Positions 6,585 to 26,068 of a DNA stretch of 30,644 nucleotides are shown piece by piece. The stretch is from a virus. Its lineage: Duplodnaviria; Caudoviricetes. Location: positions 1-30,644 of the IMG/VR virus record IMGVR_UViG_3300032272_001391; one strand, written 5' to 3'. The first letter of the stretch is position 1, and every line of letters starts with the position of its first letter. The notes under the pieces are model-generated. The model saw only the letters and a list, made by a program, of their open reading frames with translations, had not been told where the DNA came from and made no database searches. A program made the position numbers and the translations under genes.

Positions 6585-7454
6585 ATGGCTAATGAATTTT
6601 TCAGAAAGCCGGTAATAGGCGGAGATCTTAATGTTTGGGGGCGCTATAATGATGCATTAATAAGTGATTCTATTGGTAATTATTCAAGCTATTTATTTGA
6701 CTCTGCGGGTGTGCTTAAATTATCACAGGGGTTAATTGGGATTGATGACGGGACTAATTATGGAGTAGCGGATATTGACACGGAAACAACTATCGATATT
6801 TCTGGTATTTCAAATAGTAATTGGGCACAAATTGAATTATCTGTGTCGGGAACTTCTGTAACATTAACCGCTACGGATATAGCTGGAGCAACAAACCAGG
6901 TTGTAGAACCAGTTAATTTTACAAGTTCGTTTAATCCTGAAAAGTCTGGATATTATATAAATTCAGATAAAAGATGCATAGGAATAATTTGGAAAAATTC
7001 ATCAGGGAATTTAAAATCTATTATCAATAGTAATAGCAAATCAATAGGGTATTATGGGAATATAATAGTTGATGGGTCGGGAGCTAATGACGAGGGAGAA
7101 ACCTTGTATTACATGGAAATTAAAAGCGGATATGTCCGAAGAGATGTTCAAATTAAAATAGGGACTTGGAATCTTGATGGGGTTAGTAGTGTTGCCGTTG
7201 GGTGGCCATTCGGTGGGATACCTACTAGAGTGCGCAAGCCTTCTGTAAGTATAATTAATGATTTAGAAAATGCTATATATGATCTATCACAAATGGATAA
7301 TAATGCAGATCCTTCTTTATTGGCCGGGGGGATAGAATTTTTCGTTGCTGCTGGTATTCAAATAAAAAGAAGAACCGGGGGCCTATTCGATAACACATCA
7401 TTTGACAGGATCGACATGAACAGAGGATATATTAATTTTAGCTTAGGAGAATAA
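6585..7454 (+). CDS. Tail fibre / receptor-binding protein 1
   Basis: Position after the hub; N-terminal ~150 aa paralogous to the next gene; distinct beta-rich C-terminus. Confidence 0.6.
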   Translation: MANEFFRKPVIGGDLNVWGRYNDALISDSIGNYSSYLFDSAGVLKLSQGLIGIDDGTNYGVADIDTETTIDISGISNSNWAQIELSVSGTSVTLTATDIAGATNQVVEPVNFTSSFNPEKSGYYINSDKRCIGIIWKNSSGNLKSIINSNSKSIGYYGNIIVDGSGANDEGETLYYMEIKSGYVRRDVQIKIGTWNLDGVSSVAVGWPFGGIPTRVRKPSVSIINDLENAIYDLSQMDNNADPSLLAGGIEFFVAAGIQIKRRTGGLFDNTSFDRIDMNRGYINFSLGE

Positions 7455-9982: not shown

Positions 9983-10369
9983 TTAATTAGCGATCTCTAT
10001 TGCCGGTATAATGGCAACGGGTTTAAAAATAACTTTGTAATGATAAGGGGATACCGAGTTGCTTTCCAATTGTTCGGCAAAATATGTTACATTATCCGAT
10101 AAGCCTAAAAAATGCTTTTTATAACTTGCATCTCCTGTTTTGACAGTCAATTCAAGCTGGTTGTCAGTGTTGTCATTCTTTATCGAACATAACCCCTCTA
10201 CTGAAAGGATGTATTCCCCTGTTATCCCATTATAAAATACAACTCTACGGCGCACACGGAACATGTCCGCATCCTTTGACAAATTATTTGACACGATGTC
10301 TGCATCGTCACATCCTGCTATTAAAAAACAGCCGATAATAACTAGTAATAATAAAAAAATCTTTTTCAT
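9983..10369 (-). CDS. Conserved phage lipoprotein
   Basis: Lipobox LIAG-C20; 'DADIVSNNLSKDADMF.VRRRVVFYNGIT...YKKHFLGLSDNVTYF.EQ' matches a widespread phage lipoprotein family of unclear function. Confidence 0.8.
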   Translation of the reverse strand: MKKIFLLLLVIIGCFLIAGCDDADIVSNNLSKDADMFRVRRRVVFYNGITGEYILSVEGLCSIKNDNTDNQLELTVKTGDASYKKHFLGLSDNVTYFAEQLESNSVSPYHYKVIFKPVAIIPAIEIAN

Positions 10370-10427: not shown

Positions 10428-10501
10428 TAAACATCCAATAGGCCCGGGCCTGTCAGGGATACCCTAAGGCAATCTCTCCCTGTGGATGATAATTTTACGC
10501 A

Positions 10502-10704
10502 TGGGGCCGACAGGATTCGAACCTGTACGGGGTTGCGTTGACTTTTCCGGGGGGATATAACAGCATTCTATTCCCGGTTCCTGTTAATTCAGGCGTTCAA
10601 CTTCGTAATTTCTTACATTTTCTTATTCACGGATCGTTTTTACCGCTCTTTACCTATGGCCGTATATCCTACACCAATAGCGTCTACCATTCCGCCACAG
10701 CCCC
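10502..10704 (-). ncRNA. tRNA-Leu-like RNA with expanded, non-canonical anticodon region
   Basis: Acceptor GGGGCTG/CGGCCCC-A, D arm GCG-GAATGGTAGA-CGC, T arm ACAGG-TTCGAAT-CCTGT; 153 nt between D and T arms; CCA not encoded. Confidence 0.75.
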
Positions 10705-10803
10705 TTAATAGGTAGCAAGCTATATGCCTGCTGCCTTTATATATAATTTGTCTTGACTGGCTTTATGCATAGGCCAGTTTAATTTATCTTTTTATTTTTA
10801 CGG

Positions 10804-10937: not shown

Positions 10938-12206
10938 CTATTTTATTTCCCCTTCTACTATGTAGAAATAGCCTGGGGCGTCTATCGGCGGTTGCTCGCT
11001 GGCAACTTGCATTAGGCAAGTGTAACCATTCACTACTAGGTAATCGTGCAATAACTTTCTTCTTGTCGACAGTATCCCCTCCCCGCTGTGGATCATCATC
11101 CACCTAATAGCGTTTTCTGGTGTAGTATTTACGATTAGTTTAGCACCGGTCAGAAGCTTGTCGGACTCACAACACAATTCCCAGTTGTTGCCGTTAAAAG
11201 TTACTGTTTTATCTTCTGCAATACTCAACCCGTCTACTGGCATAGATGCATTAAGCACAGCTTCTTTTTTTTCTTTTTCTTTCTCTGCAATAAGTTGTTT
11301 ATTTTTATCAAAACTTTCGGTAATTACAGCAACTTTATTTTTCCAGGTCAAGAAATCTTTGTACTCTCCGGCTTGCTTGTTTATGTCTTGCAATTTGTTG
11401 AGTTTTTCCTTAACCGGGGCAATGTCTTTTAATGGCTCCGGGTCGTCTGCATTTGCGCGTAAAGATAAAATTTTTGTATTTGACTCTTTTAATTCATCTA
11501 TTTCTTTTTGCAACTTTTCGATCTTGTCGCTATTAGAATTCATTTCAGATATATAGCCTTTTATAATAGATTCCCGTTGTAATTGAAGTTGGTTGTGTTC
11601 AGTAATTTCCTTAATCTTTGCGAGGATGTCTTCAACAGACACGGCCTTCACGTTTGGTACGGGTGTTTTAGTCCCCAACTCTTTCAGTTGCCGCCTGTTG
11701 TAAGATTGATCATCCTTAATGCCTGCTATCTCCCTGTCATATGTTGACAGGTCTACCCCGGCGTATTTAACCAGGATGTCATAAAAGTTTTTTCCTTTCA
11801 TGTTGGCTATTTTTTGGGGGTCGTTCCATTCGTTGGCAATCTGTTCTAAAAAACTTGACGGGGAATTAACGGTAGACCCTTTGTCTCTGCTTACCGATAA
11901 CCGGTGTTTTTGTTCGTCGCCCTTCCCTTTGTACAAGTCCATAGCTGCCTGGAAGGCGGTTGTGTTAACAACAATCTCCCCCCGAAAAGCCTTGCCGTTT
12001 TCATCCAGCCCGTGCCTTATTAGGTCGGCGGGGATAGACCCTTTCCCTTTGCTGATTGCCAACTTGACAGCTTCTAATACAGTCGATTTCCCCGCACCGT
12101 TATCTCCCTGGAATACGTTTACCCCTGGTTCAAGCGAAACGGCAATATCTTTTATTTTACCGATGTTTCTAATCTTAACACTTACTAATCCTAGTCCCTT
12201 TTCCAT
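10938..12206 (-). CDS. SMC/Rad50-like coiled-coil P-loop ATPase (phage AAA family)
   Basis: N-terminal 'VKIRNIGKIKDI', Walker A GDNGAGKST, long coiled coil; AGGAGG RBS. Confidence 0.85.
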   Translation of the reverse strand: MEKGLGLVSVKIRNIGKIKDIAVSLEPGVNVFQGDNGAGKSTVLEAVKLAISKGKGSIPADLIRHGLDENGKAFRGEIVVNTTAFQAAMDLYKGKGDEQKHRLSVSRDKGSTVNSPSSFLEQIANEWNDPQKIANMKGKNFYDILVKYAGVDLSTYDREIAGIKDDQSYNRRQLKELGTKTPVPNVKAVSVEDILAKIKEITEHNQLQLQRESIIKGYISEMNSNSDKIEKLQKEIDELKESNTKILSLRANADDPEPLKDIAPVKEKLNKLQDINKQAGEYKDFLTWKNKVAVITESFDKNKQLIAEKEKEKKEAVLNASMPVDGLSIAEDKTVTFNGNNWELCCESDKLLTGAKLIVNTTPENAIRWMMIHSGEGILSTRRKLLHDYLVVNGYTCLMQVASEQPPIDAPGYFYIVEGEIK

Positions 12207-12220
12207 ACACCCTCCTGTTG

Positions 12221-12400
12221 AAATAAAAGCAGGGGCCCAGCTCTACGCATATGAACCGGTACGATAAACCCCCGCAAGCCCTGCCTCCATAGGACAGGTA
12301 ATAATAATTGGGATTGCACCAACCCACGGTCTTTCACCGCTTGGTTTTATCTTATTTCCACACGCTGACTACATCCTGTCAGGTTACCAACCGCCAAGCT
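12221..12400 (-). ncRNA. Putative structured small RNA / leader upstream of the ATPase
   Basis: Several stems, two T-loop-like hairpins, terminal three-way junction with a U tail; candidate promoter immediately upstream. Confidence 0.45.
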
Positions 12401-12404
12401 TTGT

Positions 12405-12433
12405 ATTATAAAAGCCCCCGGTTAAAGGGGCAA
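12405..12433 (-). promoter_or_regulatory. Promoter overlapping a terminator hairpin
   Basis: TTGCCC-17 bp-TATAAT overlapping GCCCCT/GGGGGC-TTTT. Confidence 0.5.
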
Positions 12434-13793: not shown

Positions 13794-13931
13794 ATGGGAC
13801 CAGGATTATTGACAGTATGCGTAGGCATAATAAAGATTAGGAAAATATCTGAACAAATGAAAAAGAATGATCAAAAAATGATTGATATTTTAAATAAATT
13901 CAAAACAGAGGAGGTGCAGAATGAGCACTAA
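13794..13931 (+). CDS. Small hypothetical protein (45 aa, absent from the ORF track)
   Basis: AAGGAG RBS; MGPGLLTVCVGIIKIRKISEQMKK...; fills the gap in the operon. Confidence 0.5.
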   Translation: MGPGLLTVCVGIIKIRKISEQMKKNDQKMIDILNKFKTEEVQNEH

Positions 13932-14097
13932 AAAAAAGAAAACTAATAAAAAAAATATAAAAAAAATAATTCATGTTGAATTACCAATAGAATTACATGA
14001 TAGGATAATATTAGTGAAATGCAAAAACAGGCGAACGATAACACAAACAGTACAGGATTTATTAACCTCTGCGCTTGACGAACTAAAGGTACAATAG
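13921..14097 (+). CDS. Ribbon-helix-helix (Arc/CopG-like) DNA-binding protein (58 aa, absent from the ORF track)
   Basis: GGAGGT RBS; KIIHVELPIELHDRIILVKCKNRRTITQTVQDLLTSAL fits the RHH pattern. Confidence 0.7.
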   Translation: MSTKKKKTNKKNIKKIIHVELPIELHDRIILVKCKNRRTITQTVQDLLTSALDELKVQ

Positions 14098-16772: not shown

Positions 16773-17159
16773 ATGAGCAAATTTGAACAGGGATATTATA
16801 TTAATGAGGAGTTTTCAGTCTTTAACTGCAATATTTGCGGTGATTTTCAAATCAGAGAAATAGAAGAGCAGCTTCCAGACGGTTGCTGTAACCCAGAATG
16901 TGACAGCAATACAGACAGGGAGCCAGCACCGGGGCGCAAGCTTTATTATATGGATTATCCGGCTATTGATAATCCTCCCCCACCACCACCAAGGCACCCA
17001 AAGATTACGCCTGATTGTACTAAATGCAAAAATATAGAGATAAAAATAGTTAGTTTATCAGGTAGCCATGTTGATTATTGCCCACCGCAGGGAACAAAAT
17101 TAACTTCTGATTGCTACGGGTCAAAAGAATGTTACAGGCTATACGAGGAAAAACCTTGA
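16773..17159 (+). CDS. Cys-rich (zinc-binding) hypothetical protein
   Basis: CNIC...CCNPEC, poly-Pro linker, CTKC...C...C...C. Confidence 0.6.
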   Translation: MSKFEQGYYINEEFSVFNCNICGDFQIREIEEQLPDGCCNPECDSNTDREPAPGRKLYYMDYPAIDNPPPPPPRHPKITPDCTKCKNIEIKIVSLSGSHVDYCPPQGTKLTSDCYGSKECYRLYEEKP

Positions 17160-17325
17160 TACTATCCCGTAATTATAGTATACTATAAACATAGTCGTTG
17201 ACTATACCGGAGTGATTCCCGGACATTATGAAGTTAAGCCTTTTAAGGCGGCGTGGGGGACTTCATACCCGCCCTGACAGAATCACCGGGTAACCGTGTC
17301 AGGGGCCGACTTTGAAGGCTTTTTT
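17156..17325 (+). ncRNA. C4/CI-antisense-like cassette A (promoter, target elements, branched RNA, U tail)
   Basis: TTGATA-17-TATACT; GTGATTC and TATGAAGT upstream are reverse complements of bulge GAATCAC and loop ACTTCATA in a branched stem with a GTAA tetraloop. Confidence 0.8.
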
Positions 17326-17339
17326 ATTTGGAGGATTAT

Positions 17340-17570
17340 ATGAGCAAAATACATTTTGACCCATACGGTGATGATTATTCTTGTGTAGAAAATACGCCTT
17401 GCGGTGTGCGGATGCCAGAAGATTACAAGTCATCTTCATTATGGACAGATGTTGATTGTAAAAGATGTTTGTATAACAGAGCAAAACTAACAGACAGTTT
17501 TAAAGAAAACGAAAAGGCCATAGTAAATCAAATGGGGGATATGGCTGATTATTTAGAATATAAGGAGTAG
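17340..17570 (+). CDS. Small Cys-containing hypothetical protein
   Basis: GGAGG RBS supports the ATG at 17340; H...C...'VDCKRC'. Confidence 0.6.
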   Translation: MSKIHFDPYGDDYSCVENTPCGVRMPEDYKSSSLWTDVDCKRCLYNRAKLTDSFKENEKAIVNQMGDMADYLEYKE

Positions 17571-17573
17571 AGT

Positions 17574-17984
17574 ATGGATAAATATTTAATCACCGGTCAG
17601 GTTTGCGAGGTTTGGGATAAAATAGAAACGATTCAATCATTATATTTTATTAATTTTGATAAGGATAATAAACCGGTTTTCGGTATCCACCCCACAAGTA
17701 CAAGAACGCTAATACAATTAGCCAATTACCGCCCAATAGGTACAGAGTGGGACTTCGCCCCTGATTGGGCGGTGTGTAGTACGGTTGATAAAAATGGCGT
17801 TGTGTCTTTTTGGAGCAATACAGGAGTGCAGTCTTCTTGTGAGCGCTGGTATAGCTGGAGTGAAGTCTCTGATTGTTATGGGTGTGGAATATGCCCCGAT
17901 AAATCCCGCTACCAGGGCGACGCCTGGAAAACAAGCTTAAGAATGCGCCCAGATTGGGCAAAGGAGATAACCAATGGCAATTAA
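17574..17984 (+). CDS. Hypothetical phage protein
   Basis: AAGGAG RBS; 'WDFAPDWAV...WKTSLRMRP' motif seen in small phage proteins. Confidence 0.6.
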   Translation: MDKYLITGQVCEVWDKIETIQSLYFINFDKDNKPVFGIHPTSTRTLIQLANYRPIGTEWDFAPDWAVCSTVDKNGVVSFWSNTGVQSSCERWYSWSEVSDCYGCGICPDKSRYQGDAWKTSLRMRPDWAKEITNGN

Positions 17985-18234
17985 ATATAAGAAAGAGCAA
18001 GGAGGGGAATCTTATCAATTAGGCCCCTACCGTGTGTCTATCCATAAATACATTGGTTGCGGTCATGATTTATTTTTATCATGCAACCGGCTGAACATCG
18101 TACAAAAAAGCTTAAACACTACTGATATCATAGAGGCTAGGGCTCAAGCCTCAGTCGAAATACTAAGAAATATTGGAGAACTTTCTAAATACCACAAAGA
18201 TATTATTAAGGGGATGTACGATAATGACAATTAA
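17974..18234 (+). CDS. Hypothetical protein
   Basis: AAGGAG RBS. Confidence 0.55.
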   Translation: MAIKYKKEQGGESYQLGPYRVSIHKYIGCGHDLFLSCNRLNIVQKSLNTTDIIEARAQASVEILRNIGELSKYHKDIIKGMYDNDN

Positions 18235-18808
18235 AGAGATAGCAGAAGTATTAAATGTCAGCAGGGACTTAATCGAAAAGAGAATCAAGGAATTATTCCC
18301 CGGCAAGATGATGAAGGGCGTTACTACTCATTTAAATGAGGCGGAAGTAACTATGGTTAAGCTGCGAATACAAGAGAATAGCTCTTTAATCACTTCCGAT
18401 GATCGTCGGAAGTTGCCAAAAACCAACCTTGAAAAAGAATTGATTATCCAGCAAGCCCAAATCTACCAGCAAGAAAAGGTGGCAGCTCTTATTGAAGAAA
18501 ATAAAAGGCTACTACCTAAGGCTCAATTCTTTGACAGGGTAACCGACTCTACCAGTACTTTTGATATGGGGGAAGCTGCCAAGGTGCTAAATTTAGGGAT
18601 GGGTAGAAACGCCCTATTTTTATACTTAAGACACAAAAAGGTATTAATGGCTAATAATGAGCCGTATCAAAAATATATAGACCTTGGTTATTTCCGTGTC
18701 ATAGAGCAAGAGTATACCCAAGGGGCCAAGGGGACAAAAGTTAAACTTAAGACTCTTGTTTACCAAAAAGGGATTAATTTTATACTTAAGCTGTGGGGGA
18801 TGAGATGA
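18224..18808 (+). CDS. ant: Phage antirepressor (N-terminal HTH + KilAC/ANT domain)
   Basis: 'MTIKEIAEVL', 'PKAQFFDRV', 'EAAKVL..GRNALFLYLR..KVLM..NEPYQKYIDLGYF', 'TLVYQKG'. Confidence 0.88.
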   Translation: MTIKEIAEVLNVSRDLIEKRIKELFPGKMMKGVTTHLNEAEVTMVKLRIQENSSLITSDDRRKLPKTNLEKELIIQQAQIYQQEKVAALIEENKRLLPKAQFFDRVTDSTSTFDMGEAAKVLNLGMGRNALFLYLRHKKVLMANNEPYQKYIDLGYFRVIEQEYTQGAKGTKVKLKTLVYQKGINFILKLWGMR

Positions 18809-18975
18809 AAATAAATGATTGTAAATGTGGCAGCATTAAGCGCGGGATAAAATACGGCAACCCTTGTGATTTTGGTCAAGTGAAATGTTTTACTTGCGGA
18901 GCCGTAGGGCCGGTAATGGAAACTAATAAAGATATAATTATTGAATGGAATAAATTAAATGAGGCAAAACCATGA
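18805..18975 (+). CDS. Lar-like zinc-ribbon protein
   Basis: 'DCKCGS...VKCFTCGAVGP...IIEWN'. Confidence 0.6.
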   Translation: MKINDCKCGSIKRGIKYGNPCDFGQVKCFTCGAVGPVMETNKDIIIEWNKLNEAKP

Positions 18976-19205
18976 AAAATCTATGCTATAAGCCTAATAG
19001 CCCCATAAATGAAGTGCTTGCCGGCCCGATACGGTCGGCTATGTATTGGTTAAGTAGGGGGAACTATGTTAGATACGCTATGGAGTTAACCATGGCTAAA
19101 ACTTATTTCATGCAGATTAAAGATAGGGATTTTACAGATTCGGAAAGCGACGCCCTTAATATGTCCCGTTATCATGCAAGGGTTTTTAATCTGGGGGCTA
19201 AATGA
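18972..19205 (+). CDS. Hypothetical protein
   Basis: ATGA overlap with both neighbours. Confidence 0.5.
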   Translation: MKNLCYKPNSPINEVLAGPIRSAMYWLSRGNYVRYAMELTMAKTYFMQIKDRDFTDSESDALNMSRYHARVFNLGAK

Positions 19206-19363
19206 GAATTATTAAAATAGAAAATTGTTTTATGTGCCCCTATGTTTCACCATCTATAATTAATGGTCACTGTAAAAAGCCTGGAGGGACAAGATTTAGA
19301 GTAATAAAGGATACCTCTGGGCCAATACCTAATTGGTGTCCCTTAGAGAAAGCAAAGGAGTAA
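19202..19363 (+). CDS. Small 'CxxC...WCPL' phage protein (53 aa, absent from the ORF track)
   Basis: MRIIKIENCFMCPY...HC...IPNWCPLEKAKE. Confidence 0.65.
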   Translation: MRIIKIENCFMCPYVSPSIINGHCKKPGGTRFRVIKDTSGPIPNWCPLEKAKE

Positions 19364-19368
19364 TAAGG

Positions 19369-19536
19369 ATGGGAGAAAAGAAATACACACTTGCAGAGGT
19401 GGCCGATATAATAATGGATATGGAAATAATGATAACTATAAATGGATTTTTTAATCACGACGGTACCCATAAAACAAAAACGGAATATGGCAAAATGCTC
19501 ATTACTAATCTTTGTAAACAATTGAGGGATAAATGA
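19369..19536 (+). CDS. Small hypothetical protein
   Basis: AAGGAG RBS before the ATG at 19369. Confidence 0.5.
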   Translation: MGEKKYTLAEVADIIMDMEIMITINGFFNHDGTHKTKTEYGKMLITNLCKQLRDK

Positions 19537-19545
19537 AAACACCCC

Positions 19546-19669
19546 TTGAAACAATATCAAAATTGTAGTAGTATATAATAGTCAGTGTGCAGATTGACAA
19601 ACAATTTGGCCGTTGTGCCGGGTGATAAACAAGGACTGCACTCCTTGCACCTGGCAGAGCGGCTTTTTT
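19546..19669 (+). ncRNA. C4-like cassette B
   Basis: TTGAAA-17-TAGTAT; hairpin loop GTGCAG complementary to apical loop CTGCAC of a long U-tailed stem. Confidence 0.75.
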
Positions 19670-19685
19670 AATTAATGGAGGTTTT

Positions 19686-19958
19686 ATGGTATTTATAGTT
19701 TATTGGAAAAACGGAAATACAGGACTTGTAGAAGGCAATTCGGCGTTAGATGCTTTAAAAAGATATGGTTCTTTCACAAAGTATTTAGAGGATAAATCAA
19801 ACGAAATTAGAAAGTATAAAATTAATGACTGTTTATTTGGTTCTGTTGAATTGACAGCAGCCCATAAATATTATTGCCTAAATAGGAAAGAGAACTTTGA
19901 AAACTTGTCAATTTGTTTAGGGTGCTCTGCGAGGAGTTCAAATGCAAATAATAAATAA
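19686..19958 (+). CDS. Hypothetical protein downstream of cassette B
   Basis: GGAGGT RBS; C-terminal Cys residues. Confidence 0.55.
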   Translation: MVFIVYWKNGNTGLVEGNSALDALKRYGSFTKYLEDKSNEIRKYKINDCLFGSVELTAAHKYYCLNRKENFENLSICLGCSARSSNANNK

Positions 19959-19986
19959 TTGGAGGATGTATGGGAGGACCGAATAA

Positions 19987-21051
19987 ATGAGGTCTACAAG
20001 AAAACAGCCGTTTAGCTGGCAAGAAAAGAAAGTATTGAGAATCATAAGGAAAAAGTATTCAGGTTCTATGAATGCAAAACTAAGAAACCTTTACCTTACT
20101 ATTACAGAAATGGACAGCGATTTTAATAGCCAGGACATTAAGTTTTACACCAAAAGCATTAACACCTACTCAGGCCTATCTACCGAATGGATACCAACAG
20201 GGTTAAAAATACTTGAAAATGAATTGAATATTATTGAGATAATAGAAGAGAGGGAGGGGGGCAAATTTAAAGCCAAGACTATAAAGTTTACCCCTGATAA
20301 TATTAAAGAATTACCCCATAAAACCGTTACCGGTAAAACCTTTAACGGTGAATCCGTTACCGGTAAAAATGCTACATTAAAAGATAGTTCTTATTTAGAA
20401 GATAATTCTTATTTAGAAGATAGTTCTTATTTAGAAGATAATAAAGAAGAGCTCCCTCCTCTCGGTGATAATATACAAATTAACAGGTATAAAGATAATG
20501 ATATTAATAACTTTATCATAAAAGCAAAGCACTTAGGGTTTAAGCCAGCTCCAAGGTTTTCTACGTTAAATGTTGATCCGGTTAAACTTATAAAATTGAT
20601 TGATAATTTATCTGCATTCTCCAGAGAAGAGGTTTTAACTGCTATAGAGACTTATATTTCAATACTGGAAGACCCAGAAACTTACAACCTATACAACAAG
20701 TACGGCTCAATAGTCAGCTTTTTGACAAAGGGGGTGGAGCTGTTCAGCCAACCGGATGTAGCCAGGTCACATTACCGAATAAAAGGCAAGGAGTCGCTGA
20801 AGGTGAACAGGGCGGTTGACTACCAGATTAAATCTAAGTGTGTCCACTGCAAGAAGGTATTTGACAAGGAGCTCTATAACTGCCCTGAGTGCGGGAAGGA
20901 CAGGAACCATTTACCGGAAATCTGCTATTACTGTGGCATTAAGTTTGAAAGAGACGATCAAGACTATTGCACCGGTGAAAATAGCGCAGGGGAAAAATGC
21001 GGGAAGCCCAGGGCTAGAGAGATGACCGTTAAGGTAAATAGAGGAGGTTAA
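19987..21051 (+). CDS. Replication initiator (lambda O-like layout) with C-terminal zinc ribbons
   Basis: N-terminal winged-HTH-like region, internal iteron repeats, C-terminal CVHC/CPEC/CYYC/C..C. Confidence 0.7.
   Translation: MRSTRKQPFSWQEKKVLRIIRKKYSGSMNAKLRNLYLTITEMDSDFNSQDIKFYTKSINTYSGLSTEWIPTGLKILENELNIIEIIEEREGGKFKAKTIKFTPDNIKELPHKTVTGKTFNGESVTGKNATLKDSSYLEDNSYLEDSSYLEDNKEELPPLGDNIQINRYKDNDINNFIIKAKHLGFKPAPRFSTLNVDPVKLIKLIDNLSAFSREEVLTAIETYISILEDPETYNLYNKYGSIVSFLTKGVELFSQPDVARSHYRIKGKESLKVNRAVDYQIKSKCVHCKKVFDKELYNCPECGKDRNHLPEICYYCGIKFERDDQDYCTGENSAGEKCGKPRAREMTVKVNRGG
20321..20365 (+). repeat. Three 15-bp iteron-like repeats
   Basis: AAACCGTTACCGGTA / AAACCTTTAACGGTG / AATCCGTTACCGGTA. 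Confidence 0.85.
20381..20441 (+). repeat. AT-rich 18-bp tandem repeat x3 plus a partial copy
   Basis: AAGATA(G/A)TTCTTATTTAG units. Confidence 0.9.
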
Positions 21052-21056
21052 TAATT

Positions 21057-21383
21057 ATGAGAAGAGAAAAATTTGACAAAGTAAAAAAAATAACAAAGCA
21101 AAAAGAATTCACTCAAAAACAAATTTACTTGATTGAAATAATGAATAACATATTTAGGGAGTGTAAAAAATCAGGACTTGTGTTTGAGGGGAAGGGTAGA
21201 AACTTAATTTGTTATAGGAAAATAAATTATGATTATGCAAATTCCGCACATGGTAACATTCATAGTATTTACCATGGAAGCGAGTCTTTAAAAAATATTA
21301 TCATAAAAGATTATGGAACATATAAAGATAGCGGGGCAGATGACGAACTATACTTCCCTGTGCAAAAAGATATAGGAGAATAG
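21057..21383 (+). CDS. Hypothetical protein
   Basis: GAGGAGGT RBS. Confidence 0.55.
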   Translation: MRREKFDKVKKITKQKEFTQKQIYLIEIMNNIFRECKKSGLVFEGKGRNLICYRKINYDYANSAHGNIHSIYHGSESLKNIIIKDYGTYKDSGADDELYFPVQKDIGE

Positions 21384-21388
21384 ATATT

Positions 21389-21670
21389 ATGACATTCTAT
21401 AAGTATACAGACAAAGAAGACGATATTAAAAAAATAAAAGAACGATGCACGTTCGAGGTTTTTAAAAACGGCGTGCCTGTTGGGTGCGGGTGTACCAACG
21501 TTTATGGGTACACAAAGCAATTGAGTAGAAAACAATTATTCGGCGCAAAGCGGGTATTTGAAAAAATGCCATTATGCGAGGAGCATTTTAAATATGCGGT
21601 TGGAGCCTCTTTAAAGGGTGCGTCTATTGTTAATAAGAAATATTTTAAAAAAGATGGCAGTATTGCTTGA
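21389..21670 (+). CDS. Hypothetical zinc-binding protein
   Basis: AGGAG RBS; C...CGC...'LCEEH'. Confidence 0.55.
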   Translation: MTFYKYTDKEDDIKKIKERCTFEVFKNGVPVGCGCTNVYGYTKQLSRKQLFGAKRVFEKMPLCEEHFKYAVGASLKGASIVNKKYFKKDGSIA

Positions 21671-21800
21671 TAAATAACTTGATAAGTAGTATACTGTATA
21701 TATCGGTAGTAGCTAGCTGATATTAACCAAGCCTATTTGGGTGGTACTTTTCCGGCGTTAGCTACGATAACCGGGGGTACTTACCAAATGGGCTTTTTTT
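21667..21800 (+). ncRNA. C4-like cassette C
   Basis: TTGATA-17-TATACT; hairpin loop GTAGCTA complementary to TAGCTAC at the apex of a long U-tailed stem. Confidence 0.75.
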
Positions 21801-21816
21801 ATTAATGGAGGATTTT

Positions 21817-22002
21817 GTGAAAAGAGAAAGAGCAACTGAATTAGAGTATTTAGAATGGTTTTACTATAATGCAGACTTTGGCCCTGCTGACAGCGATGTG
21901 CGTGATAATATGAACAAAGAGTTTATGGACCGCAAGGGCAAGAATATCCCAAAAGGATATAATTATGCATCCGATGGCGAAACTATTATTGATAAGGAAT
22001 AA
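21817..22002 (+). CDS. Small hypothetical protein downstream of cassette C
   Basis: GGAGG RBS supports the GTG at 21817; 'ELEYLEWFYYNADFGPAD'. Confidence 0.6.
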   Translation: MKRERATELEYLEWFYYNADFGPADSDVRDNMNKEFMDRKGKNIPKGYNYASDGETIIDKE

Positions 22003-22005
22003 ATT

Positions 22006-22347
22006 ATGATATCAGACAGAGAGAACAGATTTTTAAAAGCTTTAGGGATAACTCCGGGACCGTGGCATTTAGACGATGACACACCCGGCCATACTACTGT
22101 TTTAAGATTTGATTTAACTGCACCGAGTGTAAAACACCAAAGTCACGAAGATGCAAATCTTTCATCAAAAGCCCCTGAAATGTTTTTATTTATGTTTCGC
22201 AAATTGTGCGGATCAATTAGTTTTATAGATCTTGATATGATGCAAGAGCAAGATCAAATTGAATGGAAAGAAGATAGTAAAATAATCGAATCAGCCGCCG
22301 GTAAACCCTGGACGGAAATAGTTGAAATATGGGAGGGATTAGAGTGA
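22006..22347 (+). CDS. Hypothetical phage protein (TPGPW...APE type)
   Basis: 'TPGPW...DANLSSKAPEM' motif common in small phage proteins. Confidence 0.6.
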   Translation: MISDRENRFLKALGITPGPWHLDDDTPGHTTVLRFDLTAPSVKHQSHEDANLSSKAPEMFLFMFRKLCGSISFIDLDMMQEQDQIEWKEDSKIIESAAGKPWTEIVEIWEGLE

Positions 22348-23057
22348 ACACAAAAGAGCTAATTAAAGCAGCACACCAAAACGCAGTTACAAAAGGATTT
22401 TATACTTGCCCAGAATGTAAGGGTGTCAAGGTTTATCCTCCATGCAATCACACAGGGTGTTATAATCATATAAGTCACCCCTGCGAAGGGTGTGGTAGAA
22501 TTGTAGGCAAATGCCCCACTTGCGACGGTGCCAGCGAATACGCCGACATAGGCACCTTGTTAATGCGAATAGTAACCGAGATATCTAAAGCGGTAGAGGC
22601 GCATAGGAAAAATAGGTTTGCATTATGGGATTTATATAGCAGGTCTGTGGAAATTCAAGAGTTCCCTCCATTTGAAGAAAAAGCAGCTTTTAGCCATTAT
22701 ATCAAAGATACCTTTGAAGATAAAATAGCCGGTACCTTCATTAAGCTTTTTGAGCTTTACGGGTATTTATGGGTAGATCGTGACATTATAGAAATTGACG
22801 AACCGAGAGAATTGAGAATTGCAAATAATAAAAATATCCCTGGATTTCTTTATGAGTGTTTAACTGTTTTGCCTAGAGTATATCAAATGTATGTAGAGGA
22901 TGAGTTTATCGACAGTATTAGTTATTTTTACAGTGTGATGCTTTATTTTTGCACTGATAATAAAATAGACATTCAAAAGCACATAACCGCAAAGATGGCC
23001 TACAATTTGACCAGGCCCCCGCAAGCACGGAGAGGAGTATTAAATGATAACATATGA
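22344..23057 (+). CDS. MazG-like NTP-pyrophosphatase-fold protein, degenerate, with zinc-finger insertion
   Basis: 'AHQNAVTKGF', 'LMRIVTEISKAVEAHRK', 'KDTFEDKIAGTFIKLFE', 'HITAKMAYNLTRP'; several acidic motif residues substituted. Confidence 0.7.
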   Translation: MNTKELIKAAHQNAVTKGFYTCPECKGVKVYPPCNHTGCYNHISHPCEGCGRIVGKCPTCDGASEYADIGTLLMRIVTEISKAVEAHRKNRFALWDLYSRSVEIQEFPPFEEKAAFSHYIKDTFEDKIAGTFIKLFELYGYLWVDRDIIEIDEPRELRIANNKNIPGFLYECLTVLPRVYQMYVEDEFIDSISYFYSVMLYFCTDNKIDIQKHITAKMAYNLTRPPQARRGVLNDNI

Positions 23058-23670
23058 GCAATTAAAAGATAAATCACCGGTTGAATTCTGGCAGTGGTGC
23101 TGTGAGTTGGCTGAGGGTTGGAGTCTTTACGAATCAGGGCACCGATATTTTAGGTGTACTTGTAGACCCGGAGGAAGTTCTTTAATATTGGATAGTATTT
23201 TCCCTGAAAGTAATCAATTGTTAATATCCCAATTATTCCAACGCACAATAGACCGGGTTAATAGTGCTAAGTTGACAGAGAGTTCATGCGGGATTACATC
23301 AAAAAGATGGGATATAAAAATTTATAAATGTTTAAAAGGTGTTGGGGATATGAGTTGGTTTGAATACGAAAACTACCAACCAGCCCACGGCCTAACCAGC
23401 CAAGACCTTGCCAGGTGGGACGCACTACTTAAGGTGTGGGAGATGGAAACAATAAAGCGTATAAGCCCGGTTATATATAAAAAATATCCAAAAGGCACAG
23501 TACTTATAGACACCCATAACGAAACTATGGTTATTGCGTTTAAATTCATGGTAAGAGACCCAGATAAAGAATATGATGAAAGTAGATTTAAATTTGTATG
23601 TGATAAGCCCCATGATGACGGTGATTTTTCTTATACTTGCAGTTCTAGTTTTTGCCGGTGTAAGTCATAA
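23044..23670 (+). CDS. Hypothetical protein
   Basis: GAGGAG RBS; 208-aa ORF. Confidence 0.55.
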   Translation: MITYEQLKDKSPVEFWQWCCELAEGWSLYESGHRYFRCTCRPGGSSLILDSIFPESNQLLISQLFQRTIDRVNSAKLTESSCGITSKRWDIKIYKCLKGVGDMSWFEYENYQPAHGLTSQDLARWDALLKVWEMETIKRISPVIYKKYPKGTVLIDTHNETMVIAFKFMVRDPDKEYDESRFKFVCDKPHDDGDFSYTCSSSFCRCKS

Positions 23671-24125
23671 TGAGACATGAATCAAAAGCATATACATATA
23701 TTAAGCACGCCTGCGAAGATGTCGGAGCGTTTTATTATAAAATACCGGATACATTAGGGCAGCGGTTCACGCCTCCCAAACCTTTCGATTTATTGGTTAC
23801 TTTTCGTGGCGTTTCTATATACATGGAGGTCAAGTATTACAAGGATCTTGCAGCATTCTCGACTAAAAACTTAAGCGATAATCAGAATGAAAGCTTAAGC
23901 TTAATTCTTGACAATAGAGACCATGATAAAGTCTACATAAGACCGATGGCTTGCCTATTTGTATACAGGCCAAGGGAAATTAAGCGGCTGTACTTTTTTT
24001 GCTATGGATGGTTAAAAAAGAACCCGCAGAAAAAAACAGATATGAAACTTATTACCAAATATGTTGATGTTGAAAAAGACACCTTCAATTTACACGATAT
24101 GTTTGCAAACATGATAGGGTTTTGA
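23670..24125 (+). CDS. PD-(D/E)XK nuclease, RecU/Hjc-like Holliday junction resolvase
   Basis: 'HES...YYKIPD...KPFDLL...YMEVK...LSDNQNESL'. Confidence 0.75.
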   Translation: MRHESKAYTYIKHACEDVGAFYYKIPDTLGQRFTPPKPFDLLVTFRGVSIYMEVKYYKDLAAFSTKNLSDNQNESLSLILDNRDHDKVYIRPMACLFVYRPREIKRLYFFCYGWLKKNPQKKTDMKLITKYVDVEKDTFNLHDMFANMIGF

Positions 24126-24146
24126 GCAAATAAAAAGGAGTTATGT

Positions 24147-24443
24147 ATGTTTAAATTTATAATAAAGCGGTCTTTACGTGTGCTTATAAAGAATAGGCTA
24201 ATAATTATGGTTTTCTTTTCTTTATCGGTGTTTATAATTTTTTCTACTGGGGTGGCGTGTTATGAGTTAGGGATGAGCAAGACAGAAATATTTTTATTCA
24301 CGGCAACAATAGGGTTTTTTGTTTTAGGCAGTGTTATTGCTGGCGGAGTAGGTCATTTTAAAGGGGAGTATTTGCCGAAATTAAAAAAAGAATATATTAA
24401 TGATTACAAGGAGAAAAGCAATGAACCAATTACAAAAGAATAA
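24147..24443 (+). CDS. Two-TM membrane protein
   Basis: Two hydrophobic segments; AAGGAG RBS. Confidence 0.55.
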   Translation: MFKFIIKRSLRVLIKNRLIIMVFFSLSVFIIFSTGVACYELGMSKTEIFLFTATIGFFVLGSVIAGGVGHFKGEYLPKLKKEYINDYKEKSNEPITKE

Positions 24444-24822
24444 AGCAAGTGTAATTATAGGTAAGGCAAGGTTTGGAGTGATGATTACCCTGGCCGCCCT
24501 GGTTGTACTTGCTATCATAATTATAACAGTGGTTGTTGTGGGAGGAAAAGATCTCCCCGTAAGCCTTCTTATTATAGCCGGGGCATTTTTTGCCGGTGAC
24601 GCAACGGGAGCGGTGTCAACCCTCAAGATAGGGGCGAAGGATCTCTCTGCCATGGTTGAAGATCTTGACCACTTGGGGATTGTTACCCTTTGGGCGCATG
24701 TAACTAAGGTTTTGATCCTGAGCGGGAATATAAATAGGGAGATGTTTAAAACGCTGTATGATAACGCTGTTAAATATTTTCCAGCCGTAGAGGTTGATGG
24801 GAAACAAAAGAGGGATAGTTGA
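24421..24822 (+). CDS. Membrane protein
   Basis: AAGGAG RBS before the ATG at 24421; two hydrophobic segments. Confidence 0.55.
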   Translation: MNQLQKNKASVIIGKARFGVMITLAALVVLAIIIITVVVVGGKDLPVSLLIIAGAFFAGDATGAVSTLKIGAKDLSAMVEDLDHLGIVTLWAHVTKVLILSGNINREMFKTLYDNAVKYFPAVEVDGKQKRDS

Positions 24823-25001
24823 TGAAATTTGGTAAAAGGTGTAGCACTTGTAACACAAAAGTTGACAAAGGTTATATTAAGTATAGTGTTTGGATGGATA
24901 AAAATTATTGGGATGATCGTTATCAATACTGTGATGTTAAAGATTGGTGGTGGGAAACTATAAACATTGGAGCTTGTTACTCTAATGCAAAATATTATTA
25001 A
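24819..25001 (+). CDS. Small Cys/Trp-rich hypothetical protein
   Basis: CSTC motif; operon packing. Confidence 0.4.
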   Translation: MMKFGKRCSTCNTKVDKGYIKYSVWMDKNYWDDRYQYCDVKDWWWETINIGACYSNAKYY

Positions 25002-25043
25002 TGTCCTTATTGTGGGGAGTCATCTAATTACAAGGAGTAAATT

Positions 25044-25376
25044 ATGGATATAGATATATATTGGTTAGAGTGTATAAAAGAAGCATTATTGGAAGCTGAA
25101 TTGATAGCAACAAAAGAGCAGGTAAATATTATAGCCTCTATTGTGGAAGGGGCAGCACAAGCCAAAGCCCAGGCGACAGGTGAGGAAAATATACCTAACC
25201 CTGAATATACGGAATTAAAAGATAAAATTAAAAAATTAGAAAAAGAGCGGGATGATTATAATAAGTGGGTTAATAGTACTAAACCCTGTCTAATATGCGG
25301 TACTACTGGGTTAAAAAAAGATGTTTACGGTAGAAAAATTATTTGTAATATATGTGACGGTAAAGGGAGGTTATAA
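25044..25376 (+). CDS. Hypothetical protein with C-terminal DnaJ-like zinc finger
   Basis: 'CLICGTTG...CNICDGKG'. Confidence 0.65.
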   Translation: MDIDIYWLECIKEALLEAELIATKEQVNIIASIVEGAAQAKAQATGEENIPNPEYTELKDKIKKLEKERDDYNKWVNSTKPCLICGTTGLKKDVYGRKIICNICDGKGRL

Positions 25377-25378
25377 GT

Positions 25379-26068
25379 ATGGAATTATGGAAGAAATTAA
25401 ATTATAGCTCATTAAAAGAGTACACAGACCGTACTTGTATAGAATCCGGTGGTCCTAACTGTCACTATAATTGTGACGATTGCCGGGAAGATGAGCAGTT
25501 TCAGTACGTTCCGGAAAAGGTCTTCCCTGGGGGATTGGCTAAAATTAGGCTGGAAGAGACAGAAAAGGAAGCGGACAAACAGGCGGGATTTGCCAGGGTG
25601 ATGAGTAAAGCTGACTTACCCAATAGCCAGGAATTAAGAGAAGAGATAAAGAAATATGCTGTTGAATTACCAACGGATGATAGCAGAGAGGAAATATCAA
25701 GGATAGTACAGCAGATATATTTTGATAATGGGTTTAATTGGCGAATGAAAGATGGATATCATGAATACGACCCAAACTATATAGCAATACATGATGGGGT
25801 TATTGTTTCTGATAATAAAAAAATTATTCAAGCTTGCGGTTATGCATTAATATCAGCAAATGACTTCATAATGAAATTCCACCATGACCCGATGGGCTTG
25901 GAAGTTTGGCAAAAGGGCGGTACGGTAAAAGATGACGGATTATTGGGAGAGAGCACAAAAGAATTAACATGTAGTGATTGTAAAGAATCCGATAGATGTA
26001 TTACAACAAAATATACAGACAGTAAATGGCCAGGTGAATACTGTCCAAGCTTTACTCTCTCAAAATAA
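25379..26068 (+). CDS. Hypothetical protein with Cys clusters at both ends
   Basis: GGGAGGT RBS; 229-aa ORF. Confidence 0.55.
   Translation: MELWKKLNYSSLKEYTDRTCIESGGPNCHYNCDDCREDEQFQYVPEKVFPGGLAKIRLEETEKEADKQAGFARVMSKADLPNSQELREEIKKYAVELPTDDSREEISRIVQQIYFDNGFNWRMKDGYHEYDPNYIAIHDGVIVSDNKKIIQACGYALISANDFIMKFHHDPMGLEVWQKGGTVKDDGLLGESTKELTCSDCKESDRCITTKYTDSKWPGEYCPSFTLSK

Follow-up and report, generated by a model that had tools for sequence, protein, structure and literature searches.

Promoter-led terminator cassettes with internally complementary words are a widespread RNA pairing module of phages and possibly act as self-limiting attenuators

The 30,644-nucleotide (nt) stretch of tailed-phage DNA analyzed here (IMG/VR record IMGVR_UViG_3300032272_001391, positions 1 to 30,644; hereafter, the window) contains three intergenic cassettes, A, B, and C, that share one layout: a sigma70-type promoter, a 5′ recognition word of 6 to 8 nt, an imperfect terminator hairpin of 55 to 82 nt that carries the complement of the word, a U-run, and a ribosome site. 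A preliminary description had proposed that these three gaps follow one design, and the promoters, words, complements, long terminators, U-runs, and GGAGG-start junctions were all confirmed at their positions. Comparison of sequences indicates that the cassettes represent a phage RNA module that is real, selected, and widespread, with differing words in many unrelated phages. With slightly less than even confidence, folding models lead us to favor the view that each cassette is a self-contained RNA attenuator that would exert self-limiting negative feedback on the genes behind it. The elements of the three cassettes are as follows.

Cassette A, 17156 to 17184, + strand: promoter-like site TTGATA-17 nt-TATACT (consensus match only)
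Cassette A, 17191 to 17205, + strand: extra 5′ hairpin of 6 bp (predicted; no partner found)
Cassette A, 17207 to 17222, + strand: 4-bp hairpin with word a, GTGATTC (17212 to 17218), in its loop (predicted fold)
Cassette A, 17227 to 17234, + strand: word b, TATGAAGT, single-stranded, 3 nt ahead of the terminator stem
Cassette A, 17238 to 17325, + strand: 82-nt three-way-junction terminator (folding free energy [ΔG], −36.5), followed by 6 U (predicted fold)
Cassette A, 17330 to 19536, + strand: ribosome site and gated block (open reading frame list and profile matches)
Cassette B, 19546 to 19574, + strand: promoter-like site TTGAAA-17 nt-TAGTAT (consensus match; −10 weaker)
Cassette B, 19581 to 19598, + strand: 6-bp hairpin with the 6-nt loop word GTGCAG (19587 to 19592)
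Cassette B, 19609 to 19669, + strand: 55-nt terminator (ΔG, −34.4) whose 6-nt apical loop (19636 to 19641) is the complement, followed by 6 U
Cassette B, 19677 to 21670, + strand: ribosome site and gated block (open reading frame list)
Cassette C, 21667 to 21695, + strand: promoter-like site TTGATA-17 nt-TATACT (consensus match)
Cassette C, 21700 to 21723, + strand: 8-bp hairpin with the loop word GTAGCTA (21709 to 21715)
Cassette C, 21731 to 21800, + strand: 63-nt terminator (ΔG, −30.8) with the complement near its apex (21759 to 21765), followed by 7 U
Cassette C, 21807 to 26068, + strand: ribosome site and gated block (block end inferred)

Cassette A has two words whose complements follow in nested order: b′ lies in the terminal loop of the terminator (17260 to 17267) and a′ in a 7-nt bulge (17280 to 17286) beside a GUAA-capped helix. 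Cassette B offers a clean 6-nt loop-to-loop match. The preliminary description held that each long stem exposes the exact reverse complement of its word; this is accurate for the loop of B and for the loop and bulge of A, but in C only 5 of the 7 nt of the complement are unpaired in the minimum free energy (MFE) fold. Similarly, the recognition word was said to sit in the loop of a 5′ hairpin, which in A applies to word a but not to the single-stranded word b. Apart from the terminator base and the U-run, the three leaders have no sequence in common. Within the window the C word is unique, word a of A occurs only at 6664 and 17212, and word b occurs on the + strand only at 17227; the B word has further copies at 13914, 17826, and 30534, none of which is a downstream neighbor.

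Across the whole window, a search for long terminators (44 to 105 nt, ΔG ≤ −16, at least 5 U) returned four, of which the three led by promoters are A, B, and C, each with a word match; the fourth has neither a promoter nor a word match. Shuffled leaders equaled the observed match in 35 of 3000 trials for A (word b only), 101 of 3000 for B, and 20 of 3000 for C. The match in any single cassette is modest, and the strength of the case comes from its repetition and from other phages. The three codes had also been proposed not to cross-react. None of the 6 off-diagonal combinations of words pairs, but since swapped leader pairs reach 6 nt only ~3.5% of the time, this lack of cross-pairing matches chance expectation; selection for orthogonality was rejected because the orthogonality observed is no greater than that.

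To place these cassettes in a wider sample, three collections (viral, metagenome, and host genomes) were scanned with patterns for promoter, U-run, and ribosome site that held no pairing information; the genome scan covered 120 of ~530 stretches. Outside the window, the scans returned 230 distinct matches. A closing stem was present in 201 of these, removal of near-duplicates reduced the number to 170, and 54 of the 170 were class-shaped (leader of at least 15 nt, terminator of at least 45 nt, ΔG ≤ −15); the identical cassettes of loci L014 and L048, probably the same DNA, were removed ahead of counting. A Watson-Crick run of at least 7 nt joined the leader to an unpaired terminator segment in 17 of the 54, compared with 1.4% of swapped pairs (binomial p ~7e-19, overstated if rows are related), and runs of at least 10 nt were present in 6 of the 54 leaders, compared with 0.06% of swapped pairs. 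By source, complements of at least 7 nt were detected in 12 of 28 viral, 5 of 14 metagenome, and 0 of 12 host-genome cassettes. Because the shape thresholds had been fixed after an early scan result had been seen, replication was sought in whole phage records. Across 14 such records, 10 of 17 promoter-led long terminators had a word, versus 4 of 31 promoterless ones (Fisher p 0.002); this count leaves out the window and 13 seed cassettes, which the scan recovered. A scan of shorter gaps yielded mostly short terminators (28 matches: 2 without a closing stem, 4 already known, 18 new and distinct).

Individual phages carry two to five cassettes with differing words: G003 has four in addition to the seed L092, G010 has two, and G014 has four, and G001 has two with a promoter and a third without. 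The four cassettes of G014 are paralogous, C4-shaped, two-word cassettes on one scaffold (G014:C1 12758, 19928, 27768, and 39458; L266 to L268). In an alignment of these four sequences, with the structure read from the same sequences, 112 of 112 cells were paired and 11 of 28 pairs had changed on both sides, whereas slid controls gave 30 to 51% pairing. Two of the five long-range word-a pairs changed on both sides, and word b changes along with its loop in all four paralogues (scored by eye, as MAFFT misaligned word b). Given the excess over swapped controls and the paralogue covariation, the cassettes are selected RNA pairing modules. One-word cassettes have too little sequence in common to align. 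Many words start at the very 5′ end. In 12 of 33 cassettes the word lies in a 5′ hairpin loop, as is typical for antisense recognition, for which loop-loop and loop-linear contacts are described (PMC3753616).

To these observations of anatomy, excess complementarity, and covariation, folding adds two predictions, a trap in cis and an effect of blocking the word. Folding was computed at equilibrium, free of pseudoknots, and stepwise on the growing RNA. In the stepwise calculation the word pairs with its complement once the complement emerges. In A and C this pairing spreads into the hairpin arms, and a local hairpin is predicted to bury the 5′ arm of the terminator; the cis-paired state is favored until ~8 to 10 nt before the U-run in these two cassettes and briefly in B. 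The cis helix exceeded a probability of 0.5 on the growing RNA in 30 of 33 cassettes, a set picked for having a word, which makes this result partly circular; its median persistence extended to 4 nt before the U-run. When the word was blocked, pairing of the native terminator at 10 nt before the U-run rose by >0.2 in 16 of 28 cassettes and fell in 0 of 28, and a control block of another leader stretch produced the same rise in 0 of 28. Terminator pairing increased from 0.50 to 0.82 in A and from 0.32 to 0.89 in C. The predicted sign of control is therefore that a free word hinders the terminator, while a captured word frees it. The cassettes had been presented as antisense or kissing-loop attenuators; pure kissing fits B, but in A and C the predicted pairing runs past the loop into a longer helix.

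In the mechanism that we propose, the 5′ word of a growing transcript would pair with its complement before the terminator closes, and polymerase would read into the block. A short leader RNA would accumulate and bind in trans to the word on new transcripts; their terminators would then form and switch the block off. The finished short RNA, which displays the complement, would be the obvious captor; it could be the terminated leader (~90 to 135 nt) or a trimmed hairpin with the complement in a loop or bulge. Differing words would give each block a separate feedback loop, and the outcome in a fresh cell would be a burst of expression followed by self-limitation, for which no protein repressor would be needed. 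In A and C the −35 element is overlapped by the stop codon of the upstream open reading frame (ORF), and no separate terminator-like site lies directly upstream of the three promoters among the sites listed; transcripts started upstream would thus likely pass the same gates in series.

Several points weigh against this feedback reading, including the late fixing of thresholds and the partial circularity already mentioned. At full length, the terminators of A, B, and C win by 12 to 24 kcal/mol, so that read-through would rest on kinetics beyond equilibrium folding. Blocking the word had no effect in B (0.92 versus 0.90), whose only possible contact, a loop-loop kiss, lies outside what the program models. 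By a rough estimate of reach, a kiss and the finished terminator exclude one another sterically in only 5 to 8 of 33 cassettes; coexistence is possible in most, and steric exclusion as a general principle was rejected. Two of the 10 non-seed matches are doubtful (G005:6039, and G009:5124, which overlaps a tRNA), and only 1 of the 3 new class-shaped leaders from the shorter-gap scan had a complement of at least 7 nt (a 9-nt word). The a-words of G014 are mutually similar, which makes cross-talk possible. Three protein queries against viral contigs retrieved no orthologues of the window's own cassettes; consequently, the covariation seen in the G014 paralogues applies to the class as a whole rather than to the three cassettes of the window. 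Finally, we infer, rather than observe, transcription, build-up of short RNA, pairing in trans, and the sign and purpose of control.

Every folding result above is a result in cis, the orthogonality of the words is at chance level, and one 6-nt word is common to G003 and the window. These points are consistent with an attenuator confined to cis, in which the trap of word and complement would set the fraction of read-through, with possible tuning through the speed of polymerase, temperature, or a protein from phage or host, and the short RNA would be a by-product. We consider this unlikely, since read-through could be tuned more simply with a weaker terminator, word and complement are both displayed in loops, the words of paralogues within a genome differ, and A, B, and C have no common protein-binding sequence. 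By analogy with P4 CI, the feedback mechanism could instead serve lysogenic or superinfection immunity, with prophage RNAs silencing an incoming phage of the same word. The P4 precedent (PMC4825925; PMC3632133) points this way, as do the classification of the window (G000) as a provirus, the presence in it of a gene like that of a recombination directionality factor, the gating of antirepressor-family genes by A and by the G007 cassette, and the differences in words between phages. A role in immunity nevertheless appears quite unlikely, given that tyrosine integrase (PF00589) and serine recombinase (PF07508) domains were each found in 0 of 15 records (3 rated ≥90% complete; most are fragments) and that the genes behind many cassettes encode HNH or GIY-YIG nucleases, a methylase, a primase, or small proteins without assignment.

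The short RNA might also be an end in itself, a stable molecule whose 5′ word folds onto its own bulge, which would either close and protect the RNA or mask a seed for other targets, with read-through as leakage. In 25 to 28 of 33 cassettes the finished terminator still leaves a kiss within reach, many words lie at the very 5′ end, and the terminator is the equilibrium fold. This closed form is out of reach, however, for word b of A and for G007, G004, and L092; no further copy of a word lies near a gene start in the window; and a ribosome site with a start codon lies no more than ~25 nt past each U-run, so that the genes depend on read-through. We regard it as improbable. Positive feedback like that of IsrK of Gifsy-1, in which termination would be the default until accumulated short RNA enhanced read-through or translation of the operon it comes from, is very unlikely here, although IsrK supplied in trans raised its long transcript ~8-fold and translation of anrP ~140-fold (PMC4825925) and the full-length equilibrium state of the cassettes is likewise the terminator: the IsrK target lies downstream of its terminator, whereas both partners here lie upstream of the U-run, and removal of the word favors and never disfavors the terminator. 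Chance complementarity in ordinary promoter-terminator gaps might account for a single cassette of modest significance such as B, with its 101 of 3000 shuffles, but can hardly be credited against the binomial value for 17 of 54 cassettes, subject to the caveat on related rows, the 10 of 17 non-seed matches, and the compensatory changes. Three other explanations were rejected. Leader-peptide attenuation lacks a leader peptide with a ribosome site in A, B, or C, the only candidate frame being 8 codons from a TTG inside the B terminator; a metabolite riboswitch does not agree with the lack of common sequence among the three; and a type III toxin-antitoxin system does not agree with the lack of a repeat array and of a common downstream gene.

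The cassettes have counterparts among several known RNA regulators. C4 RNA acts on translation, is processed by RNase P, and has downstream targets a2/b2 at the first gene. Cassette A, G014, L042, and L121 resemble C4 (RF01695) in their three-stem junction, two exposed segments, and two nested upstream words; the junction with two antisense regions is predicted in A, covaries in G014, and is absent from B and C. The A leader contains C4-like upstream targets a1/b1 (17212 to 17218 and 17227 to 17234), and an antirepressor gene lies downstream of it. The published C4 drawing has stems P1 to P3 with a′ and b′ regions and upstream targets on hairpins (PMC2864571). In contrast to C4, A has no downstream a2/b2 copy and no covariance-model match, the closing stem of the cassettes is an intrinsic terminator immediately ahead of the ribosome site, most relatives resemble B and C in having one word on a single long hairpin, and a phage may have up to five cassettes with varied gated genes. 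The Rfam search suggested in the preliminary description (C4, c4-2, and c4-a1b1) gave no match in the window at E ≤ 5 or in cassette A alone at E ≤ 10; the C4 families likewise had no match in 20 loci at E ≤ 1 or in 6 loci at E ≤ 10. No Rfam family came near its gathering score at any cassette, the only real match being a tRNA in L077. Rfam has probably missed the class because only its shape is conserved. Of the proposed kinship with C4/CI-type leaders, then, the resemblance remains, whereas membership in C4, CI, or c4-2 does not, in view of the missing Rfam match and of the absence of downstream a2/b2 or seqC.

With P4 CI and N15 CA, the cassettes share an RNA within the leader that is complementary to the leader's own 5′ part. 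They differ from P4 CI in having an upstream word only, without an equivalent of seqC, in occurring as several units per genome, and in a terminator that is intrinsic and is itself the antisense element, while termination in P4 is Rho-dependent; no integrase was found in the cassette records. P4 CI RNA, cut from its leader, pairs with seqA and seqC and, as it accumulates, thereby causes premature termination, a precedent for the negative feedback proposed here (PMC4825925; PMC3632133). IsrK combines a promoter, a short RNA, an intrinsic terminator, and partial read-through into an antirepressor operon, and in its short form it targets its own longer transcript (PMC4825925). IsrK is an activator with its target past its terminator, however, whereas the cassettes have no Rfam match and no exact downstream copy of the word. 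In pT181 and in engineered orthogonal attenuators, as proposed here, loop-initiated pairing decides whether an intrinsic terminator forms; their antisense RNA is separate, whereas the cassettes combine sensor, antisense, and terminator in one ~100-nt transcript. The antisense RNA of pT181 comes from the opposite strand, and no minus-strand promoter-like site ≤300 nt downstream of a cassette was present among the best 60 of 78 sites. Specificity in pT181-type attenuators resides in the loop region (PMC3753616). Judged by their sequences, the cassettes appear to work like P4 CI and P1 C4 without being members of either group, as their terminator is the antisense element and they usually have one word. 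No description of the class was found in full-text searches, which covered few subscription papers and not the primary work on P1, P4, and N15; the c4-2 description in the supplement of PMC5737381, the motif text of PMC2864571, or the candidate tables of PMC10690425 may already hold members. Searches of cultured phages by blastn with cassette A and the G007 cassette recovered short pieces only (<20% of the query).

The cassettes head three blocks of genes, as first described: an antirepressor block (PF03374), a replication-initiator-like block (from an Atlas lead only), and a block with a pyrophosphatase and a resolvase-like gene (PHROG). The A block comprises ORFs of 76, 136, and 86 amino acids (aa), the KilAC/Ant antirepressor (18224 to 18808; PF03374, E 6e-26), a Lar-like ORF, and three small ORFs, with PHROG matches phrog_63 and phrog_599. 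Ant/KilAC is the fourth gene downstream of A, and no icd-like family match was found in the first three. The B block comprises a 90-aa ORF, the 354-aa replication-initiator-like ORF (19987 to 21051), whose Atlas neighbors carry HTH_36 (a lead only), and ORFs of 108 and 93 aa; none of these has a Pfam or PHROG match at threshold. The C block, whose end was assumed at promoter-like sites 26094 and 26166, contains small ORFs, the pyrophosphatase (labeled MazG-like in the preliminary description), and a Holliday-junction-resolvase-like ORF; the PHROG matches in this block are phrog_9236 (E 7e-20) and phrog_843 (E 4e-6). Elsewhere, the first or second gene encodes an HNH, EndoVII-like, or GIY-YIG nuclease in L033, G002, G006, G013, and two of the G014 cassettes; others gate a DNA methylase (L034), an Ant-family gene (G007), a primase or Mom-like gene (G010), or small proteins without assignment. 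In G014, two cassettes precede HNH or GIY-YIG nucleases (PHROG), and the ORF behind a third has a similar N terminus; the four may be mobile nuclease cassettes with their own RNA brake.

RNA-only control by a leader's own antisense element is known from a few enterobacterial phages and has been regarded as an exception; in the uncultured phages examined here it appears to be a common, modular, multicopy design. If the feedback operates, each cassette would count its own transcripts and shut its own gate, and its word would serve as an address open to rewriting. Up to five independent RNA timers could then run in one phage, and phages with the same word could silence one another within a cell. 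Feedback in trans would explain how early genes and toxic nucleases are timed and limited without an evident repressor. It is conceivable, though doubtful, that these portable ~100-nt cassettes, set before any early gene or homing endonuclease, constitute a widespread, protein-free, addressable control layer. The minimal one-word form offers a direct handle on the role of upstream targets in C4/CI systems, and more than 30 natural word pairs would become available for synthetic attenuators, for which larger orthogonal families are a stated need (PMC3753616).

Within single cassettes, further features were noted. The −10 region of A (17174 to 17187) forms a perfect palindrome of 14 bp; in C (21688 to 21695) the −10 palindrome is 8 bp long and has the same core. 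Either is a possible operator for a DNA-binding repressor. When A is folded together with its ribosome site, the MFE structure pairs the word-a hairpin (17212 to 17225) imperfectly with the ribosome site (17328 to 17339), a predicted contact that could add translational control on the read-through RNA. In G003:C1 53818 (L271), unlike in the window cassettes, the sequence just past the U-run repeats part of the terminator interior and nearly repeats the 5′ word, possibly as a downstream a2-like site or a duplication.

The window comes from a tailed-phage record with a provirus classification and a completeness rating of 39%. One DNA contig matches the cassette region with no differences and may be its source. 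Tail genes (profile matches) occupy 0.5 to 8.4 kb, followed by a short leftward block (10 to 13 kb), an early/middle region (13 to 26 kb), and then terminase and portal. The best cultured relatives of the terminase are 37% identical, too distant to assign a host; a few Spirochaetota records stand among the Atlas neighbors of the 354-aa protein (a host lead only). The preliminary description saw no CI repressor, and the HTH_3 repressor domain was indeed not found in the window, while it is present in 5 of 15 records. To conclude that there is no repressor would nonetheless be unsafe, because the record is incomplete, is classed as a provirus, and encodes an Arc/ribbon-helix-helix (RHH)-like candidate. 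This 58-aa protein (13921 to 14097, + strand) has Arc/RHH look-alikes among its Atlas neighbors (score 0.93) and is a candidate protein regulator; Pfam and PDB gave no support.

Elsewhere in the window, a gene at 9983 to 10369 (− strand) strongly matches phrog_478 (annotated as a recombination directionality factor) and PF25682, in a record without an integrase. At 10501 to 10706 (− strand), a tRNA-like 5′ half and a T-arm/acceptor 3′ half, which we take to resemble tRNA-Leu, are separated by ~120 extra bases; ARAGORN and Rfam report nothing there and the fold is no better than shuffles (z −1), but this is possibly an interrupted tRNA or a tRNA-like RNA. At 12206 to 12433 (− strand), a promoter-like site is followed by an immediate terminator-like hairpin, a leader of ~200 nt that folds no better than shuffles, and an AAA_23 ATPase gene. 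Within the 354-aa gene of the B block, the region from 20320 to 20440 contains a 15-bp direct repeat in two copies and an 18-bp repeat in three (read by eye); these iteron-like repeats would fit a replication initiator gene that carries its own origin.

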